From the NCBI RefSeq assembly GCF_000250635.1, contig NC_016940.1:1160995-1224994 (forward strand): a stretch of DNA of 64,000 nucleotides, read 5' to 3'. Position numbers and translations under genes: made by a program. This stretch comes from Saprospira grandis str. Lewin (GTDB lineage: Bacteria > Bacteroidota > Bacteroidia > Chitinophagales > Saprospiraceae). The notes under the pieces are model-generated. The model saw only the letters and a list, made by a program, of their open reading frames with translations, was not told the DNA's origin and did no database searches. Shown one piece after another: positions 3,476 to 62,735 of this stretch. Each line of letters opens with the position of its first letter. Position 1 is the stretch's first letter.

Positions 3476-3640
3476 GTTTTTTTCTTTTTTGGGGCTGCCC
3501 CGCCCTGCGGGCGGGTCGGGCTGTATCGCAGCTCGCAGCTCTGCTCGGCCCTGCAGGCTTTTTCGCTTCGCTTCAAAAGCCTTGGGTCTGCCGCCTTGCG
3601 GCGGCCCTGCTTTCCATCCCTCAGCCGGGGCAGTTTTCTT
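3476..3640. repeat. REP-like mosaic element, archetypal full copy (forward)
   Basis: T-run, GGGGCTGCCCCGCCCTGCGGGCGGGTCGGGCTG, GCTCGCAGCTCTGCTCGGCCCTGC core, GGCG..CGCC hairpin, TTCCATCCCTCAGCC module. Confidence 0.85.
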
Positions 3641-6816: not shown

Positions 6817-6829
6817 GGTCCATTTTTGC

Positions 6830-6985
6830 GCCTAGAGGAGCGAAGCGACTGGCCCAGCGCTGCGGAGGGGTGGCCGAAGGCCAGACCCAAGCCGCCGCAG
6901 GCGGCTGCAGGGCCGAACAGACCTGTGAGCCCCGCAGCATAGCGGCGGCCGAACTAGGCGAAGCCTAGCCGGCCGCGGGCCCCAA
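6830..6985. repeat. REP-like mosaic element (reverse)
   Basis: gcagggccgaacagacctgtgagccccgcagcatagcggcggcc..; 3' module near-identical to 60285-60345. Confidence 0.8.
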
Positions 6986-7018
6986 AGCATAAAAAAATAA
7001 CCAACCCTAATGCTAGAG
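6981..7018 (-). terminator. rho-independent terminator of metK
   Basis: aataaccaac..gttggttatt 10-bp stem; A-run on + strand = T-run on - strand. Confidence 0.65.
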
Positions 7019-8310: not shown

Positions 8311-8682
8311 TATTTCTCGCTAATTTAAAGTTGTTCAAAAAATATGCAAAGGGCCAAATTTGTCTTTTGGGCGGCCTTCGCTTCATAAATGCAGCAAAGA
8401 TATAAATTTCTGCAAAGGAAGTTAAGCCCGCCCCTATTTTGCTAGAAAAAAAGCTGAGGAACAAGCGCCAAGCAATCAAAAATCAAAGGCCCGAGCAAAA
8501 CAAGCCTCGGCCCAGTTTATTTCTTCCTGCTCAAAATGACTAAATTCTTTTCCTTACAGCCGCAGGCCCCCGAAAAACAGTTATCCTTGATGAATATTGC
8601 ATAGAAAACAGCTTGTTTTATGAAAATTGCATACGATTTAAGGCTTAAGTTGTAAAACACTATCATTCGTTTCTTTTTTTGG

Positions 8683-8995
8683 GGCTGCCCCGGCCATAGG
8701 CCGGGTCGGGCTGTGTCGTGGCTCGCAGGTCTGCTCGGCCCTGCGGCGCAAAGCGCCTTGGTCTGCGGCTGCGCCGCCCCACTTTCCATCCCTCAGCCGA
8801 TGCAGGCCAGGGCCTGCATAAAAGCGGCAGGCTATCGCCTATTTAATGTAAAGCGGGCCAGGGCCCGCTTTGAATTGGACCAATTTGGCCCAGGCAGCCC
8901 GAGGGATTCCGCAAGGAATCCCGCAGAGGGGTGGCTGGGCGGGTCATCAGTACGGATGAGGAGCGAAGCGAGGAATACCGCTTTGGGCCAACCAA
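8683..8995. repeat. composite REP-like element: forward core copy plus palindromic module B (GGATTCC..GGAATCCC)
   Basis: ggggctgcccc..gctcgcaggtctgctcggccctgc..ttccatccctcagcc then gggattccgcaaggaatcccgcagaggggtggctgggcggg..gatgaggagcgaagcgaggaataccgc. Confidence 0.8.
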
Positions 8996-9423: not shown

Positions 9424-9592
9424 GGTCCAAGGAGGCGGCGAAGCCGCCGAAAAGGCGCGCAGCGCCTCGGCTGAGGGGCTGTAGCAGGGCCGCCAAAGGC
9501 GGCAGACCAAAGCGCTGAAAGCGCTGCAGGGCCGAGCAGACCTGCGAGCTGCGCAATGGCCCGACCCAGCCGAAGGCTGGGGCAGCCCCAAA
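9424..9592. repeat. REP-like mosaic element (reverse)
   Basis: ggctgagggg..gcagggccgagcagacctgcgagctgcg..ggggcagcccc. Confidence 0.8.
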
Positions 9593-16989: not shown

Positions 16990-17570
16990 GACCTTTGTTT
17001 TTTCTTTTTTCCTTTTGGGGCCCGCGGCCCAGGCAGGCCTAGGGCCTGCCTGGGCCGCCGCTATGCTGCGCGGCTCGCTGTTACTTGCTTCGCTGCGTCG
17101 GCTCCCGTTGGTCGGGTCGCTCGGCCCATCGCTTTTTCGCTTTGCTCAAAAGCTCGGTCTGGCCTGCGGCCACCGCTGCGCAGCGCTGGGCCGCTCGGCC
17201 TCTTAGCTTGGCCAGTTCTTTCTGCTGCGGCCCCCTTGGCCCCTCCTTTTAAATGGTATTCGTCGCTGCGCTCCTCATCCGTCTATATGTCCCCGCCCAC
17301 CCACCCCTCTACGGGATTCCCTAAGGAATCCCTCGGGATGGCTGGACCAACTCCTACACCTCCTCGCCCACTAAATAGGCGGCTTCGCCGCCTCTGGCCC
17401 AAAGGGACAGAACGGCCTAGTGATGCGGCGGGGTGGCCCAAAGGGCCAGACCCAGGCGGCGCAGCCGCCGCAGGGCCGAGCAGACCTGCGAGCCCCAAAG
17501 CGTAACGGCGCAAGGCGAAGCCGCAGCGCAGGCCCCAACTCCTCCCCTCAGAAAAATAGCGGAAATAAAA
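16990..17570. repeat. ~580-bp composite of REP-like modules: two core copies in opposite orientation flanking a reverse module B
   Basis: ggggcccgcggccc.. at left, module B reverse at 17256-17332, gcagggccgagcagacctgcgagcccc core reverse at ~17480; track ORFs 16954..17505 and 17283..17663 are repeat artefacts. Confidence 0.8.
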
Positions 17571-24776: not shown

Positions 24777-24811
24777 AGATGATTGATTTATTAGATATGT
24801 TCTTTTTCTGA

Positions 24812-25040
24812 TGATTTGGGGCTGCCCCGCCCTGCGGGCGGGTCGGGCTGTCTCGCAGCTCGCTGTTCGCTCGGCCCTGCGCGGGCTGCGCCCGCTGGGT
24901 CTGGCCTTCGGCCACTGCTGCCCATCCCTCAGCCTCTGCGGCTAAAGCCGCAGCCAAGCGGCATAGCGCTTTGCGCTATTGGCTAAGATGGCGGGCTGGG
25001 GCCCGCCATATCGGCGGCTTCGCCGCCTCTTTGGACCAAA
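24812..25040. repeat. REP-like mosaic element (forward) with extra 3' hairpin modules
   Basis: ttggggctgccccgccctgcgggcgggtcgggctgtctcgcagctcgctgttcgctcggccctgc..cccatccctcagcc. Confidence 0.85.
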
Positions 25041-25921: not shown

Positions 25922-25957
25922 AATGATATCTGATTGATCAAATGGATGTTTTTCTAT

Positions 25958-26112
25958 TGTGCTGCGTCTAGAGGCGGGCGCAGCCCGCCGGCCTAGCGAT
26001 GGTAGGCAGTGCGGCGCAGCCGCAGACCCAGGCGCTGAAAGCGCCGCAGGGCCGAGCGAATAGCGAGCTGCCGAACGTAGCGCCGACGAGCGAAGCGAGG
26101 CGGAGGCCCCAA
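25958..26112. repeat. REP-like mosaic element (reverse)
   Basis: gcagggccgagcgaatagcgagctgccgaacgtagcgccg..gaggcggaggcccc. Confidence 0.75.
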
Positions 26113-26120
26113 ACAGAAGG

Positions 26121-32944: not shown

Positions 32945-33185
32945 TTACTGTTTTTTGGGGCTGCCCCTTCCGCCGGGTTAAAACCCAGCGCAAAGCGGCA
33001 TCGCTTTGCGAGCTTATACAAAATGAGGGTTAAAACCCTCATGAATTATCGGCCGGGTCGGGCTGTGTCGTGGCTCGCAGGTCTGCTCGGCCCTGCGGGG
33101 CTTTCGCTTCGCTTCAGCCCCTGGGTCTGCGGCTTCGCCGCACCACTTTCCATCCCTCAGCCTGCGGCCCTTCGGGCCTGTAGGA
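32945..33185. repeat. REP-like mosaic element (forward) with ~80-bp internal insertion
   Basis: ttggggctgcccc..[insert gggttaaaaccc..gagggttaaaaccctc]..cgggtcgggctgtgtcgtggctcgcaggtctgctcggccctgc..ttccatccctcagcc. Confidence 0.8.
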
Positions 33186-35800: not shown

Positions 35801-35821
35801 GATCTATATATACATCCTACA

Positions 35822-35960
35822 GGCCCGAAGGGCCGCAGGCCTAGCGATGTGGAGGGGTGGCCGAAGGCCAGACCGAGGAGCGGAGCGACGAAGGGCCGAG
35901 CAGACCTGCGAGCCCCGCAACGTAGCGCCGCAAGGCGAAGCCGCAGCGGAGGCCCCAAAG
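35822..35960. repeat. REP-like mosaic element (reverse)
   Basis: gaagggccgagcagacctgcgagccccgcaacgtagcgccgcaaggcgaagccgcagcggaggcccc. Confidence 0.8.
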
Positions 35961-36012
35961 CATCCCAATAAACACAAAAAAAAAGCTGAATAACTCTAAA
36001 GTTATTCAGCTT

Positions 36013-38060: not shown

Positions 38061-38094
38061 CCGAGGGGGAGCCATTATTTTTTTGTTGATTTTT

Positions 38095-38415
38095 TTGGGG
38101 CCTCCGCAGCAAAGCTGCGGCGCTACGTTTCGGGGCTCGCAGGTCTGCTCGGCCCTGCGGCCTGACGGCCTTGGTCTGCGGCTTCGCCGCCCCCCTACAC
38201 ATCGCTAGGCCATGAACGAGCGCAGCCAGCTGCGCCCAGCAGGCGGCAAAGCCGCCGCAAAGGCGCGAAGCGCCTCGGCTGAGGGATGGATAGGGGGGCC
38301 CGCAGGGCCAGACCCAAGTTTTTTGAAGCGAAGCGAAAAAAACTGCAGGGCCGAGCAGACCTGCGAGCCCGGCACAGCCCGACCCAAGGCCGTAGGCCGC
38401 AGGGGCAGCCCCAAA
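38095..38415. repeat. inverted pair of REP-like elements
   Basis: forward partial copy 38095-38200 (gctcgcaggtctgctcggccctgc) and reverse full copy 38205-38415 (ggctgagggatgga..gcagggccgagcagacctgcgagccc..ggggcagcccc). Confidence 0.85.
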
Positions 38416-39253: not shown

Positions 39254-40118
39254 TCAATTTAACAACTCTGGCTTAAGATGATCTTGGGCTAGAGTTGTTT
39301 TCTTTTTATAGCTCTTATATTCGAGCTCTTGTTGTTGGTGCATTTCAGCAGGCGGCATAAATTGACAAGACCAATGTGGCCGCGCTTGGTTGTAAATATC
39401 AATACTTTGAGCCACTATTTTCTTCATCGCATCTAGCCCTAAATGGAAAAAATCTGCAATAAACTCTTGCTTTAATATTCCATTTATTCGCTCTGCTACG
39501 GCATTTGCATAAGGGTCATAAGACTCAGTCATAGAGCAACTTATGCCTAGCTCTTTGAGTACTTGCTGATAATCATTTGAGCAGTACTGAATGCCCCGAT
39601 CAGAATGATGAATCAGCTCTTCGTTAGGATATAGACGACGCTTTGCAGCCTGTTTTAAGGCTCGAATAGAGCCAATACTGCTCAAGCTGTCAGAGACATC
39701 ATATCCCATTATTTGCTTAGAATAAGCGTCTGTGACCAAGGCTAAATACATTGGATTTTCTCTCGTTCCAATGTAAGTAATATCTGAAACCCCAGACTTG
39801 CTCTGGCCGATAAATTTTCAAATCAGCTATCTTGTTCTTATGCTTTCTGTAGTGGTGGAAGGAATTTGTCGTTGTATGATAGTTCTTTCGAGGTCGAACT
39901 AGCAGATTGTTGGCCCGCAAAATAGTAAAAAACTTATCTCGGCCTACTCGCAGAGCCTTCAACTCAGATTGAAGTAAATGGTACAATTTGCGGCCTCCTA
40001 AGCGAGGCATTTTGTTCCGTACTTCTTGAACTAAGGCAACTACTTTTTCTGCCAAACCCTGATTAGATCTATGTTTCGCCTTCGATCTATAGTACTGCTG
40101 ACGATTTATCCCGACCAA
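39254..40118 (-). pseudogene. IS3-family transposase OrfB (DDE/rve) disrupted by 1-bp frameshift
   Basis: split into 133-aa and 165-aa ORFs; cccc at ~39785 vs ccc in intact copy (47640); also one a/t substitution (M vs L). Confidence 0.8.
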
Positions 40119-42452: not shown

Positions 42453-44357
42453 ATGGGTAAGATTATAGGAATCGACTTAGGAACTACCAACTCCTGCGTA
42501 TCTGTAATGGAAGGAAACGAACCTGTAGTGATTACCAACGAAGAGGGTAAGCGCACTACGCCTTCTGTTATTGGTTTTTTGGATAATGGCGAACGCAAAA
42601 TCGGTGATCCCGCTAAGCGTCAGGCAATTACCAACCCGCACAAAACAATCATGTCTATCAAGCGCTTTATGGGCTTGCGCCACAGCGAAGCTGGCGATGA
42701 TGTGAATCAGGTCCCCTATGAAATTTTGAAAGGGGCCAACGATACTATTCGCGTAAAAATTGACGACCGCGAATATAGCCCACAAGAGATTTCGGCCATG
42801 ACGCTACAAAAAATGAAGCGCATTGCAGAAGAGTACTTGGGCCAAGAAGTGACTGAAGCTGTAGTTACTGTACCTGCTTACTTTAACGACTCTCAGCGTC
42901 AAGCCACTAAAGAAGCTGGCGAAATTGCCGGCCTAAAAGTTCGTCGTATCATCAACGAACCTACTGCCGCAGCTCTTGCTTACGGTATGGATAAAGCTGA
43001 TGAGGATGTAACTATTGCTGTTTATGACCTTGGTGGAGGAACTTTTGACGTTTCTATCCTTGAACTAGGCGGTGGCGTTTTTGAAGTAAAATCAACAAAT
43101 GGTGATACACACCTTGGTGGTGACGACTTTGACCGTGTGATCATGGACTGGCTCATTAGCGAGTTCAAACAACAAGAAGGTATTGACCTTAGCAAAAATG
43201 CAGAGGCCATCCAACGTCTAAAAGAAGCTTCAGAAAAAGCTAAGATTGAGCTTTCTGGTGGTTCTTCTACAGATATCAACCTTCCTTATATCTCTTTCAA
43301 TGAAAGTGGCGCTAAGCACTTGGTCCGCCAATTGAGCCGCTCTAAATTTGAGCAACTCATTAGCGACTTGGTACAGCGTACCCTTACGCCCTGCCAAAAA
43401 GCACTAGATGATGCTGGCCTTTCTATCGGCGATATTGATGAGATTATCCTAGTAGGTGGTTCTACTCGTATTCCTGCCATTCAGGAAGCTGTAGAAAAAT
43501 TCTTCAACAAGAAGCCCAATAAGAGCGTAAACCCCGATGAAGTAGTGGCCGTAGGTGCTGCTATCCAAGGTGGTGTATTGACTGGTGAGGTGAAAGATGT
43601 TCTTCTCCTAGATGTTACTCCCCTTTCTTTGGGTATCGAAACTTATGGTGGCGTATTCACTCGCCTAGTTGAGGCCAATACGACTATTCCTAAGCGTGCT
43701 TCTCAGGTATTTTCTACCGCTCAAGATAACCAGCCTTCTGTAGAGATCCACGTTTTGCAAGGAGAGCGCCCCATGGCCAACCAAAACCGCACAATCGGTC
43801 GCTTCCAACTAGAGGGTATCCCCGCTATGCGCAAAGGTGAACCTCAAATTGAAGTAGTTTTTGACATTGACTCTAACGGTATCCTTAGCGTTTCTGCTAA
43901 AGAGAAAACGACCGGAAAAGAACAGAAGATCCGCATCGAGGCTTCTACTGGACTTTCTCAAGAGGAAATCGATAAGATGAAGCAAGAAGCCGAGGCCAAT
44001 GCCGAAGCCGACCGCCAAGCTCGCGAAAAAGTAGATAAGCTCAATGAGGCCGACTCTATCATCTACCAAACAGAACGTCAGATGACAGAACATGGCGAGA
44101 AATTGCCCGAAAACCTCAAAGCCGATATCGAAAAAGCAGTCACTGAGCTTAAAGCAGCTCATCAAGCACAAGACCTAGATGCCATCAACAAAGGGATCGA
44201 GGCCGTAAATAACGCTTGGGCTGCAGCTAGCCAGCAAATGGGTGGACAGCCCGGCGCCGGTGGCCCCGAAGCAGGCCCCCAAGGCCCCGCCAATGACGGC
44301 CAAGCCGGTGGCGATGATGTAACCGATGTAGAATTTGAAGAGGTAGACAATAAGTAG
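42453..44357 (+). CDS. dnaK: molecular chaperone DnaK (Hsp70)
   Basis: 634 aa; [35 protein letters not shown] Hsp70 signatures; C-terminal Gly/Ala-rich tail ..EEVD-like. Confidence 0.97.
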
Positions 44358-45127: not shown

Positions 45128-46822
45128 ATGCGCTTGCTCTCTTTTTTTGCCCTTTTCTTGCTCCTCGCCTGCCAAAATGAATCCCAAAAAGCGGAGCTGC
45201 TCATCTTTAATGGCCCTATTTATACCGTAGATAGTAGCCAATCTCAGGTGGAAGCGCTGGCGGTGGCCAATGGGAAAATTATCGCCCTGGGAAATTGGAG
45301 CGATCTCCAAAAGTTTCAAAGCCCTAGTACCGAACTGCTGGACCTTAAAGGCAAAACCCTGATTCCCGCCTTTATTGAAAGCCATGCCCATATTCTGGGC
45401 CTAGGGCAGTTTAAACGAGAACTGGACCTCAGCCAAGTCAAAAGCTATGAGGAGCTGATCCAATTGGTCCAAGAACAAGCTGCCAAAACGCCAAAAGGCG
45501 AATGGATTCTTGGCCGCGCCTGGCATCAAAGTAAATGGGATTCTCTCCCCTTTTCGATCAAAGGCTACCAAACGCATGATGCCCTCAGCCAAGCCGTCCC
45601 CGATCATCCCGTTTTGCTGATGCACGCTAGCGCCCACGCCCTGATGGCCAACGAAAAAGCCATGCAGCTGGCGGGCCTAACGCCCGAAACCCAAATGAAT
45701 GAGGAAGGCGAGATTATCCGCTTTCCCAATGGCCGCCCCACAGGCATTTTTACCGAAAATGCCATGACGATGATTAAGGAGGCCCTGCCGCCCGCCGATG
45801 AAAATAGCCGCTATCAAGATCTACTAGCGGGTATCCAAGAGGCCCTTAGCTACGGTATTGGCAGCCTGCAAGATGCCGGCTCCGATTCTGCCGCTATTGC
45901 GCTTTACCGAAAAGCCCTGGCCCAAAATGAACTCCCGCTCCGCCTTTGGGTAATGCTGGCCTATAATAATTATGCTGCCGATGTCCAAGGCCAAGACGAT
46001 CCTTTCCTAGAAAAATGGCTGAAAAAAGGTCCCGAAAAAGGCGATTTTCTCAGTATCGGAGGCATTAAGCTTTATGCCGATGGCGCCCTAGGCTCTAGAG
46101 GCGCTTGGATGCTCGAGGAGTATAGCGACCGAGCTGGCCATTTTGGCCACCCTACTCTCCCCCTAAAAACTATTGAGGAGATTGCCGAAAAAGCCCTGCT
46201 GGCCGACTTCCAACTTTGTACTCACGCTATCGGCGACCGAGCCAACCGAGAGCTGCTCAATATTTATGAACGGGTCCTAAAAGCCCAGCCCCAAGCCGCC
46301 AAAGACCACCGCTTCCGAATTGAACATGCCCAACATATTGCCCCCAAAGATATTCCCCGCTTTGCCCAGCTAGATGTTATTGCCTCGGTCCAAGGGATCC
46401 ACTTTTCTTCCGATCGCCCCTGGGCCCAAAGCCGCCTGGGCCGCCTGCGCATCGCTATGGGCGCCTACCGCTGGAAACAATTGCTGGCCTCTGGCGCCAA
46501 ACTGATTAACGGCACCGATGCCCCCGTCGAGTCGATCAATCCAATCGCCTGCTTTTATAGCCTGGTCAGCCGCCAAGCCAATGATGGCCAAGTCTATGAA
46601 GCCGACCAAAAGCTGAGCCGCCTGCAGGCCCTAAAGGCCTATACCCTAGATGCCGCCTATGGCGCTTTTCAAGAAAAGGAAAAAGGCAGCCTAGAGGTCG
46701 GAAAGTTTGCCGATTTTGCCATCCTTTCCCAAGATATTATGCAGGTCCCCCTCCAAGATATTCCCCAAACTAAGGTCCTGCAAACTATTGTAAACGGTAA
46801 AACGGTCTATTTGAGGGAGTAG
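45128..46822 (+). CDS. amidohydrolase-3 family metal-dependent hydrolase (lipoprotein)
   Basis: 564 aa; lipobox LLLACQNE; HAH..H metal-binding pattern IESHAHILG; family length and C-terminal region. Confidence 0.7.
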   Translation: MRLLSFFALFLLLACQNESQKAELLIFNGPIYTVDSSQSQVEALAVANGKIIALGNWSDLQKFQSPSTELLDLKGKTLIPAFIESHAHILGLGQFKRELDLSQVKSYEELIQLVQEQAAKTPKGEWILGRAWHQSKWDSLPFSIKGYQTHDALSQAVPDHPVLLMHASAHALMANEKAMQLAGLTPETQMNEEGEIIRFPNGRPTGIFTENAMTMIKEALPPADENSRYQDLLAGIQEALSYGIGSLQDAGSDSAAIALYRKALAQNELPLRLWVMLAYNNYAADVQGQDDPFLEKWLKKGPEKGDFLSIGGIKLYADGALGSRGAWMLEEYSDRAGHFGHPTLPLKTIEEIAEKALLADFQLCTHAIGDRANRELLNIYERVLKAQPQAAKDHRFRIEHAQHIAPKDIPRFAQLDVIASVQGIHFSSDRPWAQSRLGRLRIAMGAYRWKQLLASGAKLINGTDAPVESINPIACFYSLVSRQANDGQVYEADQKLSRLQALKAYTLDAAYGAFQEKEKGSLEVGKFADFAILSQDIMQVPLQDIPQTKVLQTIVNGKTVYLRE

Positions 46823-46824
46823 GA

Positions 46825-46965
46825 TTTGGGGCCTCCGCCTCGCTTCGCTCGTCGGCGCTACGTTTCAGGGCTCGCAGGTCTGCTCGGCCCTTCGCCAGCT
46901 TCGCTGGCTCGGTCTGGCCTACGGCCACCCTTGCACATCGCTAGGCCTGCGGCCCTTCGGGCCTG
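46825..46965. repeat. REP-like mosaic element (forward, partial module set)
   Basis: ggggcctccgcctcgcttcgctcgtcggcgctacgtttcagggctcgcaggtctgctcggccc..ggtctggcctacggccacc..catcgctaggcc. Confidence 0.8.
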
Positions 46966-47107
46966 CTATCCGTAGCTTGTCCCGTCCTGAAAAACTGATA
47001 CAGAATTTAAAGCAATAAAATTCTGATTAAATACGGGTGAAAAGTTATTCTGGAAGATTTTGACCTCCTTCAAAAAGGTCAAAAAATCTTACGGAAATAA
47101 CTTGTTG

Positions 47108-47971
47108 TCAATTTAACAACTCTGGCTTAAGATGATCTTGGGCTAGAGTTGTTTTCTTTTTATAGCTCTTATATTCGAGCTCTTGTTGTTGGTGCATTTC
47201 AGCAGGCGGCATAAATTGACAAGACCAATGTGGCCGCGCTTGGTTGTAAATATCAATACTTTGAGCCACTATTTTCTTCATCGCATCTAGCCCTAAATGG
47301 AAAAAATCTGCAATAAACTCTTGCTTTAATATTCCATTTATTCGCTCTGCTACGGCATTTGCATAAGGGTCATAAGACTCAGTCATAGAGCAACTTATGC
47401 CTAGCTCTTTGAGTACTTGCTGATAATCATTTGAGCAGTACTGAATGCCCCGATCAGAATGATGAATCAGCTCTTCGTTAGGATATAGACGACGCTTTGC
47501 AGCCTGTTTTAAGGCTCGAATAGAGCCAATACTGCTCAAGCTGTCAGAGACATCATATCCCATTATTTGCTTAGAATAAGCGTCTGTGACCAAGGCTAAA
47601 TACATTGGATTTTCTCTCGTTCCAATGTAAGTAATATCTGAAACCCAGACTTGCTCTGGCCGATAAATTTTCAAATCAGCTATCTTGTTCTTATGCTTTC
47701 TGTAGTGGTGGAAGGAATTTGTCGTTGTATGATAGTTCTTTCGAGGTCGAACTAGCAGATTGTTGGCCCGCAAAATAGTAAAAAACTTATCTCGGCCTAC
47801 TCGCAGAGCCTTCAACTCAGATTGAAGTAAATGGTACATTTTGCGGCCTCCTAAGCGAGGCATTTTGTTCCGTACTTCTTGAACTAAGGCAACTACTTTT
47901 TCTGCCAAACCCTGATTAGATCTATGTTTCGCCTTCGATCTATAGTACTGCTGACGATTTATCCCGACCAA
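47108..47971 (-). CDS. IS3-family transposase OrfB (rve integrase core, DDE)
   Basis: 287 aa; ..HSDRGIQYCSNDYQ..ESYDPYANAVAERINGILKQEF.. integrase core; likely expressed by -1 frameshift from OrfA. Confidence 0.9.
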   Translation of the reverse strand: MVGINRQQYYRSKAKHRSNQGLAEKVVALVQEVRNKMPRLGGRKMYHLLQSELKALRVGRDKFFTILRANNLLVRPRKNYHTTTNSFHHYRKHKNKIADLKIYRPEQVWVSDITYIGTRENPMYLALVTDAYSKQIMGYDVSDSLSSIGSIRALKQAAKRRLYPNEELIHHSDRGIQYCSNDYQQVLKELGISCSMTESYDPYANAVAERINGILKQEFIADFFHLGLDAMKKIVAQSIDIYNQARPHWSCQFMPPAEMHQQQELEYKSYKKKTTLAQDHLKPELLN

Positions 47972-50531: not shown

Positions 50532-50564
50532 AAATAGCTAAAACTATTGATTTTATCCTTAAAA

Positions 50565-50900
50565 ATGCGGTGGACAGGCGGCGAAGCCGCCGCAGGCTGA
50601 GGGATGGACAGCAGTGGCCGTCAGGCCAGACCCAGCCGCCGCAGGCGGCGCAGGGCCGAGCGAAGAGCGAGCTGCGAAACAGCCCGACCCGACCGCAGGG
50701 AGGGGCAGCCCCAAAATAGCAGCGAGCTGCGACAACCAGCCCCAAAGGGGCGCCAGTTCGATGACCAAGGGGAATAAACAGCCCGACCCGACCGCAGGGA
50801 GGGACAGCCCCAAAATAGCAGCGAGCTGCGACAACCAGCCCCAAAGGGGCGCCAGTTCGACAACCGAAGGGCGTAGCGGCAGCCCCAAAATAGCCGCATA
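50565..50900. repeat. REP-like element (reverse) followed by tandem duplication of a ~95-bp module
   Basis: ggctgagggatggacag..gcagggccgagcgaagagcgagctgcg then aacagcccgacccgaccgcagggaggg(g/a)cagccccaaaatagcagcgagctgcgacaaccagccccaaaggggcgccagttcga twice (50681-50775, 50776-50870). Confidence 0.85.
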
Positions 50901-51986: not shown

Positions 51987-53489
51987 TTATTTTGATGTTG
52001 ATTCAGGGGCTTCCATAAAGCTTTGGGGCTCTAGAAAAGCAAATTGATAATATCTGAAATAAAGGGATTGCAGACCGAGAAATAGGCGGCCATCCTCTAG
52101 GGGGTAGCTCAATTCGGGGCAGAGCAATTCATCTTTAAATTCGTAAGATAATAACTGTTTCTCTTTTAGCTTGCCTTGGGCATCTATTTGGGCTAGGTAG
52201 GCGCCTGATTCGCGGCCATAGAGGCCTCGATTGAAGAGCAGATACAGCTTGCCGGCCTTCTCCCAAAGGTAAGGGCGTAAAAAGCTAGCCTTAGACTTGG
52301 GAAAAGAGTTGTGTTTGAGGATACTCTGCTCCCAGAGTAGCTCTCCAGCTTCAGAGAAGCAGAGCAGAAAAATATTGTGGCTTTTAAAGTTATGAATGCC
52401 ATAGGGACGTTCTTCAGCTAGGAGGATCAAGCGACCATCGGCCAGTTGTCGGAAGCTGATCGTTTTGTAATTTCGCAGCTCTGTTTTCTCCTTAATTCGC
52501 CCTAATTTCCGCTGCAATAATTGGGCTTTTAGCGAGTCGGAAAAGGACTGCTTGTACTTAGTGAGCACCTGATTTCGGGCGGCATTTATTTTAATAAAAA
52601 AATAGCCGCCTTGTTTATAATATTTTTTCTGAGAGTAGAGGCCGGTCCAATAAATATTGCCCTCTGCATCAAAAAGGAGATCCATTTCATTATAGAAAAA
52701 ATCGCCTAATTTGGGACTAAAGTGGGTAAACTCCCCTGCATTTGGGCCTAAGAAATAGACCAGGGGGTCTGCCGTTACCTTTTTGAGCTGATAAGAGCGT
52801 TTTTCTCGAAATCGATCGCAGAGAATAGCAATAATTCCTTGATTACTAATCTTCAGCTTTTGAATAGCGACCACTCTTTTTCCGCTTTGATGAAGAGAGA
52901 GATCCAGCTTGCGCTCCCAGAGCAGCTGAAGACGGGCATCGAGCACCCGCAGGCGGATGCTATTGGTAAGTCCCCGAATATCTTCAATATCGCCTTCTTC
53001 CTCATAATCATAAAGCAGCAATTTGCTACCATCTGGAGAAAGGACAAAATTGCCTCGGTAGAGGCGTTCTTTCATATCAAAGGGCGGAATCAGGGCAATA
53101 CTATCGGGAGATAAGCGAAAGCTATCGGGCAAAATTTCTTTGGCATAGAGGCTCACATCCTCATAGCGCTGAAGAGCCTTATTGTCTATATAGTAGGAAT
53201 AGAGCAAATAGTTTTTGTCCTGAATGTGCATGGCTCCGCCATATTTTCGCTTTCGGTCGCTTGAAATATAGCGGCCCTTTAGCTTGAGCTGCCCATCGTA
53301 AATTTCGGTTTCGGCCTTATCGAATTGCTTATTAAAGCGCAAAATCTGAAAGCGATTCTCCTCATACTCTAAAAGCGCATAGGTTTTATAGTTACCTAAT
53401 CGCTCTTGGCGCTCGCCCAAAAATAGCGCTTGTGCGCCCAAGAATAAAGGGAAAAAGCTGATCAATAATAGAAGTATAATTTTATGCAT
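51987..53489 (-). CDS. hypothetical secreted protein
   Basis: 500 aa; signal peptide MHKIILLLLISFFPLFLGAQA; Tyr/Leu/Lys-rich; no domain. Confidence 0.5.
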   Translation of the reverse strand: MHKIILLLLISFFPLFLGAQALFLGERQERLGNYKTYALLEYEENRFQILRFNKQFDKAETEIYDGQLKLKGRYISSDRKRKYGGAMHIQDKNYLLYSYYIDNKALQRYEDVSLYAKEILPDSFRLSPDSIALIPPFDMKERLYRGNFVLSPDGSKLLLYDYEEEGDIEDIRGLTNSIRLRVLDARLQLLWERKLDLSLHQSGKRVVAIQKLKISNQGIIAILCDRFREKRSYQLKKVTADPLVYFLGPNAGEFTHFSPKLGDFFYNEMDLLFDAEGNIYWTGLYSQKKYYKQGGYFFIKINAARNQVLTKYKQSFSDSLKAQLLQRKLGRIKEKTELRNYKTISFRQLADGRLILLAEERPYGIHNFKSHNIFLLCFSEAGELLWEQSILKHNSFPKSKASFLRPYLWEKAGKLYLLFNRGLYGRESGAYLAQIDAQGKLKEKQLLSYEFKDELLCPELSYPLEDGRLFLGLQSLYFRYYQFAFLEPQSFMEAPESTSK

Positions 53490-53665
53490 GTATAGATGAT
53501 TTGATGTAAATGTACTGACTTCTTATAGAAGTCTAAACTTAGCCCCAAAGCAAATAGATGAATCTCTGAAACAATCTGGTGGTTTTAAATTAACTAAGCA
53601 AAAGAGAAACTAATTTTGACCTTTTACATTTATCCGACTTTCTATTTATCAAAACCCCTTATAGA

Positions 53666-53980
53666 ATGATTAGTCTTATTATACTTATTGGCGTAATTCG
53701 CAATTATTGGAATTTAGCCAAAGCAAAAGGCAAAAATGCTTATTTATGGGCATTTCTAGCTTTTATTATTTATTATGGCTTAGTTATACTCATATCTGTC
53801 CCCCTTATGTTTTTCCTAGAAGAACAGATTACAGGAGAACCCGGCTTTGAACTCCTCTTCAATTTAGTTATTGGATTTCTATCTTTACTTTTCACTTATT
53901 TACTAGGTCCGGTCCTTATTAAAGATGATAAGGCCCTCTCTTTGGAGGAGCAAAACGACATCTTAGATGCTGGCCTTTAA
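53666..53980 (+). CDS. small 3-TM membrane protein, paralog 1 of tandem family (C-terminal NDILDAGL)
   Basis: 104 aa; KNAYLWAFLAFIIYYGL motif shared with paralogs. Confidence 0.55.
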   Translation: MISLIILIGVIRNYWNLAKAKGKNAYLWAFLAFIIYYGLVILISVPLMFFLEEQITGEPGFELLFNLVIGFLSLLFTYLLGPVLIKDDKALSLEEQNDILDAGL

Positions 53981-53989
53981 TTTATCATT

Positions 53990-54313
53990 ATGATCATACT
54001 CACTATTATCCTTGCGGGCGCCTTGGCCATTGGCAAATGGTACTGGGATAGCGCCGCCGAGCAATCTCTGCCCAAACTCAAATGGCTACTCATTGGTATG
54101 GGCCTATTTATTGGCAGCTATATCCTCATTGGAATAATTGTCTCCCTAGTCTTTCAGTTTGTTTTTGGCGATCTGGCCATTGGTATACATGAAATTGGCA
54201 AAATTCTCATTACCGCCTCTTTGGCTATTAGTGTCTGCAAATGGGGCAACAAACGCTGGCTAGAAAATTATAGCCCTCCCCAAAAGTCAGATATTCTAGA
54301 TGCGGATATATAA
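53990..54313 (+). CDS. small 3-TM membrane protein, paralog 2 (C-terminal SDILDADI)
   Basis: 107 aa; 10 bp after paralog 1; 3'-terminal 22 nt cagatattctagatgcggatat identical to paralog 4. Confidence 0.55.
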   Translation: MIILTIILAGALAIGKWYWDSAAEQSLPKLKWLLIGMGLFIGSYILIGIIVSLVFQFVFGDLAIGIHEIGKILITASLAISVCKWGNKRWLENYSPPQKSDILDADI

Positions 54314-54324
54314 ACCAGTTTCCT

Positions 54325-54636
54325 ATGCAATTGACTATTTATTTACTCCTGTTCTCTTTTTTTCTGGCCTTAGTTCTTTACGGACATTACCGCCTCAAAG
54401 CTCAAGCTGCTAGACTAAATCCAGAAATTTGGGGCCTAGCTGGCCCCATGCTTTTCTTTGGGCTCAATCATTACCTCAGTCTGCTCATCATTGCCCTTCG
54501 GGAGAGCATCAGTAATATTGATTTATTTCTCGCCCTCAGTATAGCAGGCAGCCTCCTTAGCTTTGCAACCATTTTCTTTATGGCCCCTTACCTAATTTCT
54601 ACGGTCCAAACAACAGCAGAACATGAACGCGATTAG
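54325..54636 (+). CDS. small 3-TM membrane protein, paralog 3 (lacks DILDADI tail)
   Basis: 103 aa; PEIWGLAGPMLFFGLNH motif region. Confidence 0.5.
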   Translation: MQLTIYLLLFSFFLALVLYGHYRLKAQAARLNPEIWGLAGPMLFFGLNHYLSLLIIALRESISNIDLFLALSIAGSLLSFATIFFMAPYLISTVQTTAEHERD

Positions 54637-54973
54637 CCCCCATCTTCTCACGTATATCCTTAGCCTAATCAGCCTATTTTATTATGCTTCTCTTGCCCCT
54701 AAACACAGCAAGAATGCCTTGCTATGGGCGGCTTTTGGCTTTCTTTTTCAGACAGGCCTCTCTCTCCTTTTCATCCTATTCAGTAAGGTATTTATCGCCC
54801 TATTCAAAATCCTTTCTTGGCCCATCAATGATTATTGGGCGATTGGCCTGCTCCTTCTCCCCCTAATCGCCTGCGTCCTTAGCCTTAAGCTAGCCCCTTC
54901 TTTTGTTGCGCCCCAAGCAAAAAGCCCCGCTCCTTCCTCCTCCAATTCAGATATTCTAGATGCGGATATTTAG
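54623..54973 (+). CDS. small 3-TM membrane protein, paralog 4 (C-terminal SDILDADI)
   Basis: 116 aa; KNALLWAAFGFLFQTGL; overlaps paralog 3 by 14 nt. Confidence 0.55.
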   Translation: MNAISPHLLTYILSLISLFYYASLAPKHSKNALLWAAFGFLFQTGLSLLFILFSKVFIALFKILSWPINDYWAIGLLLLPLIACVLSLKLAPSFVAPQAKSPAPSSSNSDILDADI

Positions 54974-55140
54974 GGGCCCGCGGCCGCCCTTTATAAGGGG
55001 GGCGGCCGCCGCTAGGCTCCGCCGCTCGCAGGGCTGCTCGGCCCTGCAGCGCTTTCAGCGCTTTGGTCTGGCCCTTCGGGCCACGGCTGCGCAGCGCTGG
55101 GCCATTTGGCCCTGCGGGCCAAGGGGGCTTCGCCCCCTAG
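54964..55140. repeat. REP-like mosaic element (forward, variant 5' module)
   Basis: ggggcccgcggccgccc..gctcgcagggctgctcggccctgcagcgctttcagcgctttggtctggcccttcgggccac.. Confidence 0.8.
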
Positions 55141-55168
55141 ATTCCTAAACCTAGCATAAAACACAACC

Positions 55169-55372
55169 ATGATCAACTACTATGCTTATTACATCCCCTT
55201 CCTACTTATGCTTGGCCTCAACTTTTATATGTACAGAAAGAAAGCCATTCGCTACAATAAAAATCCACTAAATTGGGGACTTATTAGCCTCCTTATCTAT
55301 TACGTTTGCTTTGAACTACTCTTTCATCTGGCCAATTTGTTGTTTGCATTTGTTGGTGTAGCCTACCCGTAA
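55169..55372 (+). CDS. small membrane protein, paralog 5, apparently truncated by IS insertion
   Basis: 67 aa; KNPLNWGLISLLIYYVC motif; ORF ends 3 bp before inferred IS left end. Confidence 0.45.
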   Translation: MINYYAYYIPFLLMLGLNFYMYRKKAIRYNKNPLNWGLISLLIYYVCFELLFHLANLLFAFVGVAYP

Positions 55373-55389
55373 GGTGCAACCAAAAAATA

Positions 55390-56172
55390 CTATACATCTA
55401 ACATCGTCCTTTCAAAGTCATATGGGCTAATATTTCCCAGACTTTGGTGGGGACGATTAAAATTGTAGTGCTGAAACCAATTTTGAATTTCCTCATTTAG
55501 TTCTTCTAAAGAGTGGAACCAAGATAAGTTTAAACACTCTGTTCTCAAAGTTTTATTTAATCGCTCAATAAATGCATTTTGGGTAGGTTTTCCTGGCTGG
55601 ATGAACTTTAATTCAATATCATGTTTTTGGGCCCAAGCAGCTAACTTTTTAGAGATGAATTCTGGCCCATTATCGCAACGAATATAGTCAGGTTTACCTC
55701 TGTAATCCAGTACTTTATCAAGTACATCAGTAAGCTTTTTTGCAGAGATACTTTGATGGGCTTCTGTCCACAAAGCTCGCCTTGAGGTCTCATCCATAAT
55801 GTTGATAATTCGGACCGATTTCTTATCTGAGCTCATGACCCAATCGCTTAAAAAATCCATAGACCAACCCTTATTTACCTCCTTGGGCAAAGAGATAGGT
55901 TCAAATTTTCGGCGAATACGCTGACGCTTTGGGCGCTGTCTTAAGTTTAATTTTTCTCTCTTCCAGATTCTATACACCTTCTTATGATTGAAGGTAACAC
56001 CTTGATTTCTAATGTAATGAAAAACCTTCCAAAAGCCCCAAGCTAAATATTCTTTCGTGACTTCATGCAGTAATTTAGCGATTTGATCATCGACTACTTC
56101 TGGCCGATGACCTGACTTTCGTTTATAGTATGTTTGACGACGAAACCCCAAAACGACACAGATTCGACGCAC
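55390..56172 (-). CDS. IS3-family transposase OrfB (rve integrase core)
   Basis: 260 aa; ..YIRCDNGPEF..ERLNKTLRTE..HQSLG integrase-core pattern. Confidence 0.8.
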   Translation of the reverse strand: MRRICVVLGFRRQTYYKRKSGHRPEVVDDQIAKLLHEVTKEYLAWGFWKVFHYIRNQGVTFNHKKVYRIWKREKLNLRQRPKRQRIRRKFEPISLPKEVNKGWSMDFLSDWVMSSDKKSVRIINIMDETSRRALWTEAHQSISAKKLTDVLDKVLDYRGKPDYIRCDNGPEFISKKLAAWAQKHDIELKFIQPGKPTQNAFIERLNKTLRTECLNLSWFHSLEELNEEIQNWFQHYNFNRPHQSLGNISPYDFERTMLDV

Positions 56173-56195
56173 ACTGTACTTCTTGGACAGCTCGT

Positions 56196-56495
56196 CTATG
56201 ACTCTTTCTTGTCTTTTGGGGTTAAGTGCTTTTTTGCCATTGCATAGCCCTCTTCTAAAATTTCATAATTCATGCTTAAGTCTGCATACATCTTTTTTAA
56301 ACGAGCATTTTGGGCCTCTAATTCCTTGATTAAACGCTCTTTATCGTCAACTTCTTGCTCTTTGGATCTTTTCCATTTATAGAAAGTGGCTGGGCTTATT
56401 TGGTGCTTTCTACACAAATCTGCCACGCTAAGGCCGCTGTCGTGCTCAGCTAAAATTGATAACTTCTGCTTTTCCGTGAATTTACTTTTTCGCAT
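56196..56495 (-). CDS. IS3-family transposase OrfA (HTH)
   Basis: 99 aa; SVADLCRKHQISPATFYKWKR HTH; leucine-zipper-like C-terminus. Confidence 0.8.
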   Translation of the reverse strand: MRKSKFTEKQKLSILAEHDSGLSVADLCRKHQISPATFYKWKRSKEQEVDDKERLIKELEAQNARLKKMYADLSMNYEILEEGYAMAKKHLTPKDKKES

Positions 56496-56778
56496 CCTTT
56501 TAGTTTTTGTTCTTTAAGATAATTATTTTCTATAACTAATGGTTGCTTTTTTGGGCAGGCTACATTGGGTACAGCTACGTTTTTTACACAGAGCAGCTTT
56601 CAGAAAAAGAAGAGGGACCTCAGGTTATGTATATTCTACTTTATAGTCGCCAAGCAATAGCCTTCCTTTCCGCCTTATGGCTAAGTTTGCGCATAGGAGA
56701 ATTCCTTATCCGCCCTAGTAAAAATCAGTCTAATGCCGACAATCAGCAGCCCTAGGCCATCTGCTAAAAAGGACTGCC

Positions 56779-58154: not shown

Positions 58155-58189
58155 GATAAGAACTTCTCCTTAATAGGCCAAGTTTTTCC

Positions 58190-58345
58190 TCTTTTTGGGG
58201 CTGCCCCGCCCTGCGGGCGGGTCGGGCTGTCCGCAGCTCGCTGCTCGCTCGGCCCTGCGGCGGCTTTGCCGCCTAGGTCTGCCGCCTTCGGCGGCCCTGC
58301 TCTCATCCCTCAGCCGAGGCGCTTCGCGCCTGCAAAACGCAGTTG
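58190..58345. repeat. REP-like mosaic element (forward)
   Basis: ttggggctgccccgccctgcgggcgggtcgggctgtccgcagctcgctgctcgctcggccctgc..ctcatccctcagcc. Confidence 0.85.
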
Positions 58346-58348
58346 GAC

Positions 58349-59107
58349 CTATTTCAGACCCCGCTTTTCACAAATCGTATCATAGGCCTCTTGCAAGCGC
58401 TTAAACTTAGACTCCCCCACTTTCTGAAATTCCTCTCCCAAACTCGCCAAACTATCCGGATGATACTTCTTCACCATCTTGCGATAGGCGGCCTTTAATT
58501 TGGCATCAGAGGCAGAAGGGGGTAACTCTAAGATCTTATAATGGCTGTCCATTTCATCATAAAACATCGCCTTAATCGATACAAAATCACTATGCGGTAG
58601 GTCCAACTCCAAACTAATGCGCTTGATGGTATCCACCTCCACCTGGTCAATACTATAATCTGCATTGGCAATGCCAAACAGAAAATAGAGCATCTGCAAG
58701 CGGGTTTCATAGCTACTGCTCAAATAAATCTGCCGACAAGTTTTGGCCATATCCCAATCTTGCTCTAAGGCGGCACTCAAAATGCCCATATACTCCTGCA
58801 AGTTATCTTGGCCAAACTGCTCGACCAAAAACTTTTGAATATAGCTCAGCTCCAACTCTTCTACCTCTCCATCTGATTTGACCACCGCAGCGGCCAAGAT
58901 GAGGGAGCTCAAAATAAAGTTGGTGCTGTCGTTGGGTTGTGGCAATTGTTTTTTGCGCCTTTTTGGGCCTGCCCCCCCTCCTTTTTGAAGCAGTATATCT
59001 AGAAAAAAGCCAATACCTAAACCCAGTAAAAGACCAATTGGAAAGTAGAGCAAGCCACCCAACAGCAAGCCTAGAATCTTCCCTATATGTTGTTTTAGTA
59101 TCTTCAT
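58349..59107 (-). CDS. DjlA-like membrane co-chaperone (TerB-like region plus C-terminal J-domain)
   Basis: N-terminal TM; C-terminal J-domain YKILELPPSASDAKLKAAYRKMVKKYHPD. Confidence 0.6.
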   Translation of the reverse strand: MKILKQHIGKILGLLLGGLLYFPIGLLLGLGIGFFLDILLQKGGGAGPKRRKKQLPQPNDSTNFILSSLILAAAVVKSDGEVEELELSYIQKFLVEQFGQDNLQEYMGILSAALEQDWDMAKTCRQIYLSSSYETRLQMLYFLFGIANADYSIDQVEVDTIKRISLELDLPHSDFVSIKAMFYDEMDSHYKILELPPSASDAKLKAAYRKMVKKYHPDSLASLGEEFQKVGESKFKRLQEAYDTICEKRGLK

Positions 59108-60144: not shown

Positions 60145-60192
60145 AATTCTGACTTAATTAAAGGATGATTCCAAAACGGCAGAGAAAGACGC

Positions 60193-60348
60193 AAATGGCC
60201 CAGCGCTGCGGAGCGGGTGGCCGCAGGCCAGACCAAAGGCAGGCTACGCCTGCCTGCAGGGCCGAGCAGACCTGCGAGCCCCGCAGCATAGCGGCGGCCG
60301 ACCTAGGCGCAGCCTAGCCGGCCGCGGGCCCCAAAAAAAACGAAATCG
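60193..60348. repeat. REP-like mosaic element (reverse)
   Basis: gcagggccgagcagacctgcgagccccgcagcatagcggcggccgacctaggcgcagcctagccggccgcgggcccc. Confidence 0.8.
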
Positions 60349-60492
60349 TATAGGGCTTTAAGTCTTTAGAAACAGAAAAATAACAAAGATAAAGAAGGCA
60401 CAGTTAAAAAATCGGTTATTTTGCTTTTTAGCGCCCCAGTTGCGCCTTATCTTTTGCCAGCTAATTGAGTTTCACCTAATTTAATAGAACTT

Positions 60493-62516: not shown

Positions 62517-62555
62517 ATAGGCTAGTTCTTGATTCAGGACTAGCCTATTTTTTTG
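62517..62555 (+). terminator. rho-independent terminator
   Basis: ataggctagt-12nt loop-actagcctat stem plus TTTTTTT, merging into REP T-run. Confidence 0.75.
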
Positions 62556-62735
62556 GGGCCTGCCGCCTTTGGCGGCCGGGCCCTTGCGGGGCTCGCAGGT
62601 ATGCTCGGCCCTGCGCCGCTTTCAGCGGCTGGGTCTGGCCTACGGCCACCCCTTCAGGCCCCTAGGCCGACGGGCCTTCGGCCCTCTATTTGGCCTTTGC
62701 TTGCGGCGGCTTCGCCGCCTGCAAAACCCAGAAAA
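62552..62735. repeat. REP-like mosaic element (forward, variant)
   Basis: ttttggggcctgccgcc..ggggctcgcaggtatgctcggccctgcgccgctttcagcggctgggtctggcctacggccacc.. Confidence 0.8.

Follow-up and report, generated by a model that had tools for sequence, protein, structure and literature searches.

Organization of the array

The 64,000-nucleotide window of the Saprospira grandis str. Lewin chromosome analyzed here (contig NC_016940.1, positions 1,160,995 to 1,224,994) carries at 53666-55372 five co-directional open reading frames (ORFs) on the + strand, which encode proteins of 104, 107, 103 and 116 amino acids (aa) and a split fifth product. Of these genes, referred to as p1 to p5 in their order, p1-p4 were tightly packed or overlapping, as the initial annotation of this DNA had described for the array. 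The products of p1-p4 were identical to AFC23932-AFC23935 (SGRA_1197-1200; 116/116 positions between p4 and AFC23935), each of which is annotated as a hypothetical protein. Our results showed that the array is a Saprospira-specific five-fold tandem expansion of an uncurated family of three-helix membrane proteins, and that it is dispensable enough to decay by strain. The array genes were located as follows:

53666-53980, + strand: p1 (SGRA_1197), 104 aa, ends NDILDAGL; the clearest member of the wider family; codons 38-64 hypervariable between strains
53990-54313, + strand: p2 (SGRA_1198), 107 aa, ends SDILDADI; 83% identity to the sister-species copy and 99% to that of strain WH-T
54325-54636, + strand: p3 (SGRA_1199), 103 aa, without the acidic tail; linked to the family only via p1
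54623-54973, + strand: p4 (SGRA_1200), 116 aa, overlaps p3 by 14 nucleotides (nt); ends SDILDADI
55169-55372, + strand: p5 as read, 67 aa; the reading frame continues into an insertion sequence (IS) up to 55372

The genes were separated by 9 nt between p1 and p2, 11 nt between p2 and p3, and 195 nt between p4 and p5, in addition to the 14-nt overlap of p3 and p4, and no spare small ORFs were present between the tightly packed genes. The ratio of non-synonymous to synonymous divergence (dN/dS) between species was 0.2-0.33 for all five genes, which indicated purifying selection, and the five ORFs were therefore regarded as real genes.

Remote paralogy of the five genes

The pairwise identity among the five proteins was low (17-30%), and the E values of BLASTP were mostly above 1e-3; in a tiny database the pairs p1-p4, p1-p3 and p3-p5 reached 2e-4, 8e-3 and 6e-3, respectively. 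One profile was built for each orthologue group, and the profiles were compared with each other by hhalign, with reversed sequences as controls. The profile of p1 matched those of p4 (E 1e-6) and p3 (82%, E 1e-5), and matched the profile of the wider family described below over the full length (97.4%, E 1e-11). The matches of p2 and p4 with the wider family were 92.5% and 92.3%, respectively, both at E 5e-7, and the best control with a reversed sequence gave E 7e-3. The hhalign value of p5, about 2e-3 against this best control, was not significant. The p5 protein carries the local motif RKKAIRYNKNPLNWGLISLLIYY, and when its hidden Markov model (HMM) was run against 1,114 ORFs of unrelated loci, family members made up nine of the ten top matches.

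The copies also had a turn motif in common, K-N-x-x-x-W, which reads KNAYLW in p1, KNALLW in p4 and KNPLNW in p5, with LNPEIW in p3 and LPKLKW in p2 at the corresponding place. Three copies, p1, p4 and p5, carry this K-[NS]-x-x-W turn, p2 and p3 have a degenerate form of it, and its location was the same in each copy. The motif K-N-x-L-x-W-(A/G)-(F/L) proposed in the initial annotation thus persists as a shared turn, which is better written in the shorter form. As judged from these comparisons, the paralogy of the array genes is real but remote, and p3 joins the group via p1 while p5 joins it weakly. The earlier description of paralogous proteins with three transmembrane helices was borne out clearly for p1-p4 and weakly for p5, and both hydropathy and AlphaFold2 gave three helices.

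A wider, uncurated family

The family came to light through P0017, which the array profile matched weakly; its proteins measure 105-118 aa and have no Pfam domain. When 1.84 billion cluster representatives were searched exhaustively with a profile, 737 family members were obtained at E <= 1e-3 and 407 at E <= 1e-10; the family was defined from alignments A4 and A5, and its representatives were clustered at 50% identity. Nearly all of the members were stand-alone proteins of 100-125 aa, with the consensus M-x-G-L-x-L-I-Y-F-x-G-K-A-F-Y-x-L-A...K-[SN]-x-W-G-F-A-I-L-G-V-x-S-Y-Y-x-G...P-F-G-x-L-x-C-W-G-F-Y-K-x-L...W-S-K...[DE]-[IV]-L-D-A-[DN]-L. The members of the wider family (e.g. MEL7532730.1; P0017-P0237) resemble the array proteins in length, in their three helices, in the helix 1, K-[NS]-x-x-W and YY-x-G motifs, and in the [DE][IV]LDA[DN]L tail. 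They differ in being encoded usually by a single gene, whereas Saprospira has five; two of these, p3 and p5, no longer have the tail or most of the sequence signature.

The family was widespread in contigs of Bacteroidota type. The assignment to this phylum rests on limited evidence, namely one member (MEL7532730.1) named by NCBI as deriving from a Bacteroidota metagenome-assembled genome, and several loci with markers that are typical of Bacteroidota, for example Por_Secre_tail and outer-membrane proteins of CarboxypepD_reg type. Among 80 metagenomic family loci the genes were mostly single-copy, with an adjacent second copy in 6/80. At L010:5678-5989 (the same locus as L039, ORF 4639-4977), a diverged and apparently two-helix copy stands directly upstream of a canonical member and ends TTLDADLIDQQ; the diverged L010 copy retains the tail, and tail-keeping tandem duplication therefore recurs outside Saprospira.

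No general shared neighbor was found across the 80 loci, where the adjacent genes were variable and were unrelated housekeeping genes. The sole recurrent neighbor was an RDD-family protein of about 146 aa, encoded at 7 of the 61 loci with enough downstream DNA (L018, L019, L021, L027, L040, L045, L085) and in addition at L007. In these eight loci the RDD gene lies directly downstream, starting 26-55 nt after the family gene. The N-terminus of this RDD protein reads M..D[QHE]ILDAP and is followed by YAGFWIR, and its ILDA core is the same as that of the family tail; it is a looser version of the tail, conserved at the N-terminus of one RDD sub-family. Judging from this likeness, the ILDA core may be a short linear motif used in both proteins. 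Apart from the ILDA core and the directly downstream position in one sub-clade, the family has no homology to RDD proteins (PF06271), and no RDD gene stands beside the Saprospira array. A conserved intramembrane site of RDD proteins faces the cytoplasm according to a 2025 paper that cites unpublished work (PMC12419801).

No model of Pfam, NCBIfam, PHROGs or PADLOC matched the family, and the searches returned only sub-threshold transmembrane noise. A profile search of the PDB sequences found no relative (E >= 0.6), a scan of 2.9 million viral contigs found none either, and Foldseek searches of PDB and of viral structures had no match at E <= 1; the fold searches yielded generic helical matches only. 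A profile scan of genome contigs with the p5 group had S. grandis DSM 2844 as its sole match, and literature searches for the tail peptide and the locus tags returned nothing relevant. The suggestion that the family is undescribed was thus upheld with regard to Pfam, NCBIfam, PHROGs, PADLOC and PDB, but with 737 representatives it is not a Saprospira orphan.

The fifth gene is split by an IS3 element

The initial annotation had stated that the fifth copy is cut short by an IS3 element. The mapping of the element agreed with this statement and gave the following features:

55169-55356, + strand: 5' part of p5, codons 1-62 and two bases
55353-55356 and 56565-56568: TTGG target-site duplication flanking the IS3 element
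55357-56564, - strand: IS3-family insertion sequence, 1,208 bp, with orfA (56196-56495) and orfB (55390-56172), both on the - strand
56569-56755, + strand: 3' part of p5, the in-frame continuation after removal of the IS; ends ...SKNQSNADNQQP, without the acidic tail

The inverted repeats of the element, TGTAGCCTaCCC / GGGcAGGCTACA, lie at 55357-55368 and 56553-56564 and have the form TG...CA. The orfB product scored 212 bits against the NCBIfam model transpos_IS3 (cut-off 160), and orfA scored 44 bits. Excision of the IS together with one TTGG fuses 55169-55356 in frame to 56569-56755 and restores a protein of 124 aa, which had 91% identity to the intact orthologue P0003; intact 124-aa orthologues of p5 were present in P0003, L015 and L096. 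Strain WH-T carries an uninterrupted p5 of 124 aa with a single TTGG, which represents the empty site. Because the two parts join in frame and the site is empty in WH-T, p5 of Lewin was identified as a recent IS-split pseudogene, whose second half stands 1.2 kb downstream, outside the coordinates given in the initial annotation.

Two more ORFs with an integrase core (rve) were observed on the - strand at 39254-39751 and 47108-47971. Their DNA was unrelated to that of the IS3 element in p5, and the region is IS-rich.

The acidic C-terminal tail

The initial annotation had described a conserved DILDADI tail, with endings given for p1, p2 and p4. The tail, [DE]-[IV]-L-D-A-[DN]-[LI], was carried by these three copies but not by p3 or p5, and its L and D were more than 90% conserved across the family. 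It was kept in the family with varying codons, which pointed to a feature at the level of the protein. The possibility that the tail is a general terminus of Bacteroidota membrane proteins was considered and rejected, since among 1,114 ORFs of the 80 loci it occurred in family members only, together with one likely chance match; being confined in this way, it was treated as a family feature.

The segment reported as identical between p2 and p4, TCAGATATTCTAGATGCGGATAT, was indeed identical in the tails of the two genes, with a length of 23 nt rather than 22. In their last eight codons, p2 and p4 agreed at 23/24 nt, p4 and its own orthologue at 20/24, and p2 and its own orthologue at 14/24, where the tail of p2 in the sister species has decayed to NIPNADL. 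Such a pattern is consistent with concerted evolution through gene conversion, and the recent conversion of the tails proposed earlier is plausible on this basis, although the tract is very short and its flanks are non-homologous.

Architecture, topology and conservation

The AlphaFold2 model of p1 (predicted local distance difference test score, pLDDT, 84; predicted template modeling score, pTM, 0.69) contained helices at residues 2-20, 25-50 and 59-84 and a tail helix of low confidence. The model of a p5 orthologue (pLDDT 82) likewise had three long helices and turned tightly at N-K-N-P, and hydropathy agreed with three transmembrane helices. In the five Saprospira paralogues, loop 1 was rich in Lys and Arg, loop 2 was acidic in most, and the segment after helix 3 was basic and was followed by the acidic tail where present. 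Based on the positive-inside rule, the N-terminus is predicted to be outside and the C-terminus to be cytoplasmic.

Conservation was uneven along the family. In an alignment of 76 sequences, the mean column information was 3.1-3.3 bits in helix 1 and the first half of helix 2, 2.9 bits in the last half of helix 3, 2.4 bits in the tail and 1.4 bits in loop 2. With the predicted topology, this unevenness suggests that the conserved surface faces the cytoplasm and that the outer half is variable.

Slow and fast genes in one array

Comparison of Lewin with the sister species gave the following identities and divergences (dN, non-synonymous; dS, synonymous):

Flanking genes: identity 88-91%, dN about 0.06, dS 0.65-1.07
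p1: identity 44%, dN 0.51, dS 1.8
p2: identity 83%, dN 0.08, dS 0.36
p3: identity 56%, dN 0.33, dS 1.55
p4: identity 51%, dN 0.35, dS 1.07
p5: identity 91%, dN 0.05, dS 0.19

The array is thus a mosaic of slow and fast genes. The rapid diversification suggested earlier applies to p1, p3 and p4 (44-56% identity against 88-91% in the flanks), but not to p2 (83%) or p5 (91%). The dS values varied as well, with p5 (0.19) and p2 (0.36) below the flanking genes (0.65-1.07) and p1 and p3 above them (1.55-1.8); this mosaic of dS may stem from recombination between lineages or from constraint acting on synonymous sites.

Between Lewin and WH-T, p2-p4 were 97-99% identical and p1 was 78% identical. Of the 23 differences in p1, 17 fell within codons 38-64, 27 residues that extend from the outer half of helix 2 through loop 2 into the start of helix 3. 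This patch contained 19.5 non-synonymous and 2.5 synonymous differences (dN 0.40; dS 0.15, the background level), corresponding to a dN/dS of about 2.7, and it stood out from the rest of p1 (Fisher p = 0.003) and from the flanking genes (p = 2e-5). An imported recombination tract was considered as the origin of this hot spot and rejected, since such tracts in flanking genes had dS 0.6-0.7 and dN/dS 0.17-0.34, whereas the p1 patch had a background dS.

Genomic context, synteny and decay

The array lies between a conserved gene for a 500-aa secreted protein on one side and a polysaccharide deacetylase gene on the other, both on the - strand, and the deacetylase gene converges on the array in all genomes. 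The surroundings consist of core genes, which encode mevalonate diphosphate decarboxylase, amidohydrolases, a bactofilin, a TerB-DnaJ protein, an esterase, an M1 peptidase, DnaK, DnaJ and GrpE. The five genes stand in the same order in the sister species (L002, L003) and in S. grandis WH-T, and all Saprospira genomes that were examined had the array on the chromosome and in synteny. Within this syntenic frame the array decays by strain: Lewin has the IS3 element in p5, DSM 2844 has p3 and p4 replaced, and WH-T has all five genes intact. In DSM 2844 (L015:4512-6000), about 1.4 kb with ORF fragments resembling transposase remnants and a GC-rich repeat stands in place of p3 and p4, which constitutes an independent second decay. 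Two intergenic features adjoin the array genes:

53490-53665: divergent intergenic region of 176 bp between the array and the 500-aa - strand gene
54974-55150: structured GC-rich intergenic repeat, which separates p1-p4 from p5, has a folding energy of -122 kcal/mol (z -5.1), and has a counterpart at this position in the sister species

The first of these is presumed to hold the promoter of the array; the sigma-70 promoter scan is uninformative for Bacteroidota. The 500-aa gene at 51987-53489 (- strand), which is divergent from the array, has a hydrophobic N-terminus resembling a signal peptide and no Pfam or NCBIfam match, and is syntenic in all Saprospira genomes. At 52707-52946 this gene diverges between Lewin and WH-T in a patch that resembles the outcome of recombination.

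Islands with a GC content of at least 68% were observed 19 times in the window, against 47% GC in the genome. They were mostly intergenic, had modules in common and resembled REP/BIME-type elements. They include 3491-3590, 6821-6990, 8671-8830, 9431-9590, 17011-17560, 24801-24980, 25951-26120, 33041-33180, 35811-35970, 38091-38330, 44191-44330, 46821-46970, 50561-50880, 58171-58350, 60181-60350 and 62541-62730. The repeat at 54974-55150 is itself one copy of this dispersed modular element, and many other sites have modules in common with it. In six-frame scans, spurious ORFs read through these GC-rich islands.

In the sister species, a sixth gene follows the array (L003:5200-6357; L002:5210-6367). 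It encodes a multi-pass protein of 385 aa and shares 23 nt with the end of p5. Its product aligned to positions 7-155 of the 160 in the PMT_2 profile at 25.7 bits, below the cut-off of 26.1, and was thus regarded as GT-C glycosyltransferase-like. Gene 6 was absent from all three S. grandis genomes (Lewin, DSM 2844 and WH-T); the corresponding junction in the window, at about 56756-56778, was alignable only where gene 6 overlaps p5 and the deacetylase gene. Among 5.8 billion proteins gene 6 had two homologues only, itself and one variant at 88%, and none was found in the 80 family loci. The sister species also encodes an S8 peptidase with the tail of the type IX secretion system (T9SS) about 7.8 kb downstream, which is an ordinary protease.

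Proposed role of the family

We propose, with a probability of roughly 0.45, that the paralogues are isoforms of a small inner-membrane adaptor or regulator that docks via its tail and its cytoplasm-side surface. Each protein would sit in the membrane with an external N-terminus and a cytoplasmic C-terminus. On the cytoplasm side, helix 1 (G-K-x-F-Y-x-L-A) and the K-[NS]-x-x-W turn into helix 2, together with the end of helix 3 (P-x-G...C-W...Y...L...W) and the acidic amphipathic tail [DE]-[IV]-L-D-A-[DN]-L, would form a docking surface for a common partner. The half facing the periplasm would be free to vary, so that the paralogues would have the inside connection in common and would differ in their contacts outside or within the membrane. 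In this arrangement p1-p4 would act as one tight unit. The p5 protein may belong to a second unit, because its gene lies beyond the structured repeat and is translationally coupled to the GT-C-like gene in the sister species.

Several observations weigh against this proposal. The topology is predicted. The link to the RDD proteins was confined to one sub-clade. The tail is missing in p3 and p5 and decayed in the p2 of the sister species, and it is therefore not indispensable. Between species, p4 showed the opposite pattern of conservation, with loop 2 (KILSWPIND) conserved and helix 1 and helix 2 varying. The dN/dS of about 2.7 in the p1 patch, which was picked after the data had been seen, was not significantly above 1 (binomial p = 0.09). 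Finally, the fold searches yielded generic matches, and the structure therefore neither supports nor refutes the mechanism.

A broader version of the adaptor proposal would see in the family an undescribed class of Bacteroidota inner-membrane proteins, in which a short cytoplasmic ILDA-D/P motif, common to the family and its RDD neighbor, plugs different membrane proteins into one partner while the outer half is subject to diversifying selection. The array would then be a battery for recognition or protection, for example against membrane-acting toxins or phage, with a single intracellular response. We consider this extension speculative and unlikely.

Alternative explanations

The initial annotation had regarded such arrays as typical of immunity cassettes or of other rapidly diversifying accessory families. 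In an immunity cassette, each paralogue would guard the inner membrane against a different competitor toxin, such as a pore-former or an enzyme acting on lipids or lipid carriers, and the variable periplasmic half would recognize the toxin. The array resembles the immunity proteins of colicins, other bacteriocins and polymorphic toxins in its small, multi-helix, tandem paralogues, in the fast divergence of some of them (the dN of p1, p3 and p4 was five to eight times that of the flanking genes, and the predicted outward-facing patch of p1 had a dN/dS of 2.7 between strains), and in a gene content that varies by strain. The adjacent duplicates at 6/80 other loci are also in line with a cassette. 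In contrast to these systems, no linked toxin or delivery gene was present: a Pfam search of all ORFs of at least 150 aa at 33187-62499, within about 20 kb, brought up only housekeeping and IS genes, and none for a toxin, a bacteriocin or its precursor, secretion, Rhs/PAAR/VgrG, contact-dependent inhibition (CDI) or T9SS cargo. The proteins had no sequence or fold relation to immunity proteins and no match to a Pfam immunity family, NCBIfam or PADLOC. The five-gene order is conserved between species in a core-genome setting, whereas a swapped cassette would lose its order, and elsewhere the family is mostly single-copy among unrelated housekeeping genes. In addition, conservation was strongest in the tail and on the side predicted to face the cytoplasm, while neutralization of toxins in the periplasm would predict otherwise. 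The fast outward-facing divergence still speaks to some extent for the immunity explanation, but this explanation lacked every contextual hallmark tested and is not supported; we regard it as unlikely.

GT-C enzymes are often encoded beside small multi-pass proteins, and the array genes could accordingly belong to an envelope-glycan module. The proteins would be accessory or flippase subunits like GtrA or ArnE/ArnF, working with gene 6 and the polysaccharide deacetylase on a polyprenyl-linked sugar. The overlap of the sister-species p5 with the start of gene 6, the score of gene 6 close to the PMT_2 cut-off and the deacetylase gene that converges on the array in all genomes fit such a module. 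The likeness to GtrA and ArnE/ArnF partners, however, consists in the neighboring GT-C-like gene, which is found in the sister species only and touches p5 directly and no other copy. The three S. grandis genomes kept the array and have no gene 6, and since this gene, with its two homologues among 5.8 billion proteins, was absent from S. grandis and from the 80 family loci, the reading of the array as GT-C accessory genes was weakened. Moreover, the proteins have three helices instead of four and no homology to GtrA, EamA or SMR proteins, and the structured repeat separates p1-p4 from p5 and gene 6. A role in such a module appears improbable.

Class I holins are proteins of about 100 aa with three transmembrane helices, the N-terminus out and the C-terminus in, and a charged C-terminal tail, and the array proteins resemble them in size, in the predicted topology and in the hydrophilic, charged tail. 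Holins, or other small proteins that self-assemble into pores, were nevertheless judged very improbable: there was no endolysin, prophage or lysis context, no PHROGs match, no relative in the 2.9 million viral contigs or among viral structures in Foldseek at E <= 1, and the tail is acidic, not basic. The holin explanation thus had no phage support. That the similarity is merely compositional, arising from hydrophobic helices in ORFs that are not true paralogues or not genes, is the least credible explanation: the low pairwise identity, the weak BLASTP values and the non-significant hhalign result of p5 would allow it, but it is contradicted for p1-p4 by values of 1e-5 to 1e-11 against 7e-3 in the reversed controls, and further by purifying selection on the orthologues of every ORF, by the turn located at the same place in each copy, by the tail in three copies and by the family members among the top matches of the p5 HMM.

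Significance

What is new here is a hitherto undescribed family together with its local expansion, and the novelty is modest. The family, with 737 representatives at 50% identity outside Pfam and NCBIfam, is now delimited, and the local annotation is corrected in that the fifth gene is an IS-split pseudogene with its other half 1.2 kb downstream. Cultured strains are losing the array piece by piece, and it has no tie to a major open question. If the proposed mechanism is true, the acidic tail would be a motif common to two unrelated families of membrane proteins, and the patch of 27 codons in p1, in which 17 residues have changed between two strains of one species while the rest of the locus has remained 97-99% identical, would face outward.

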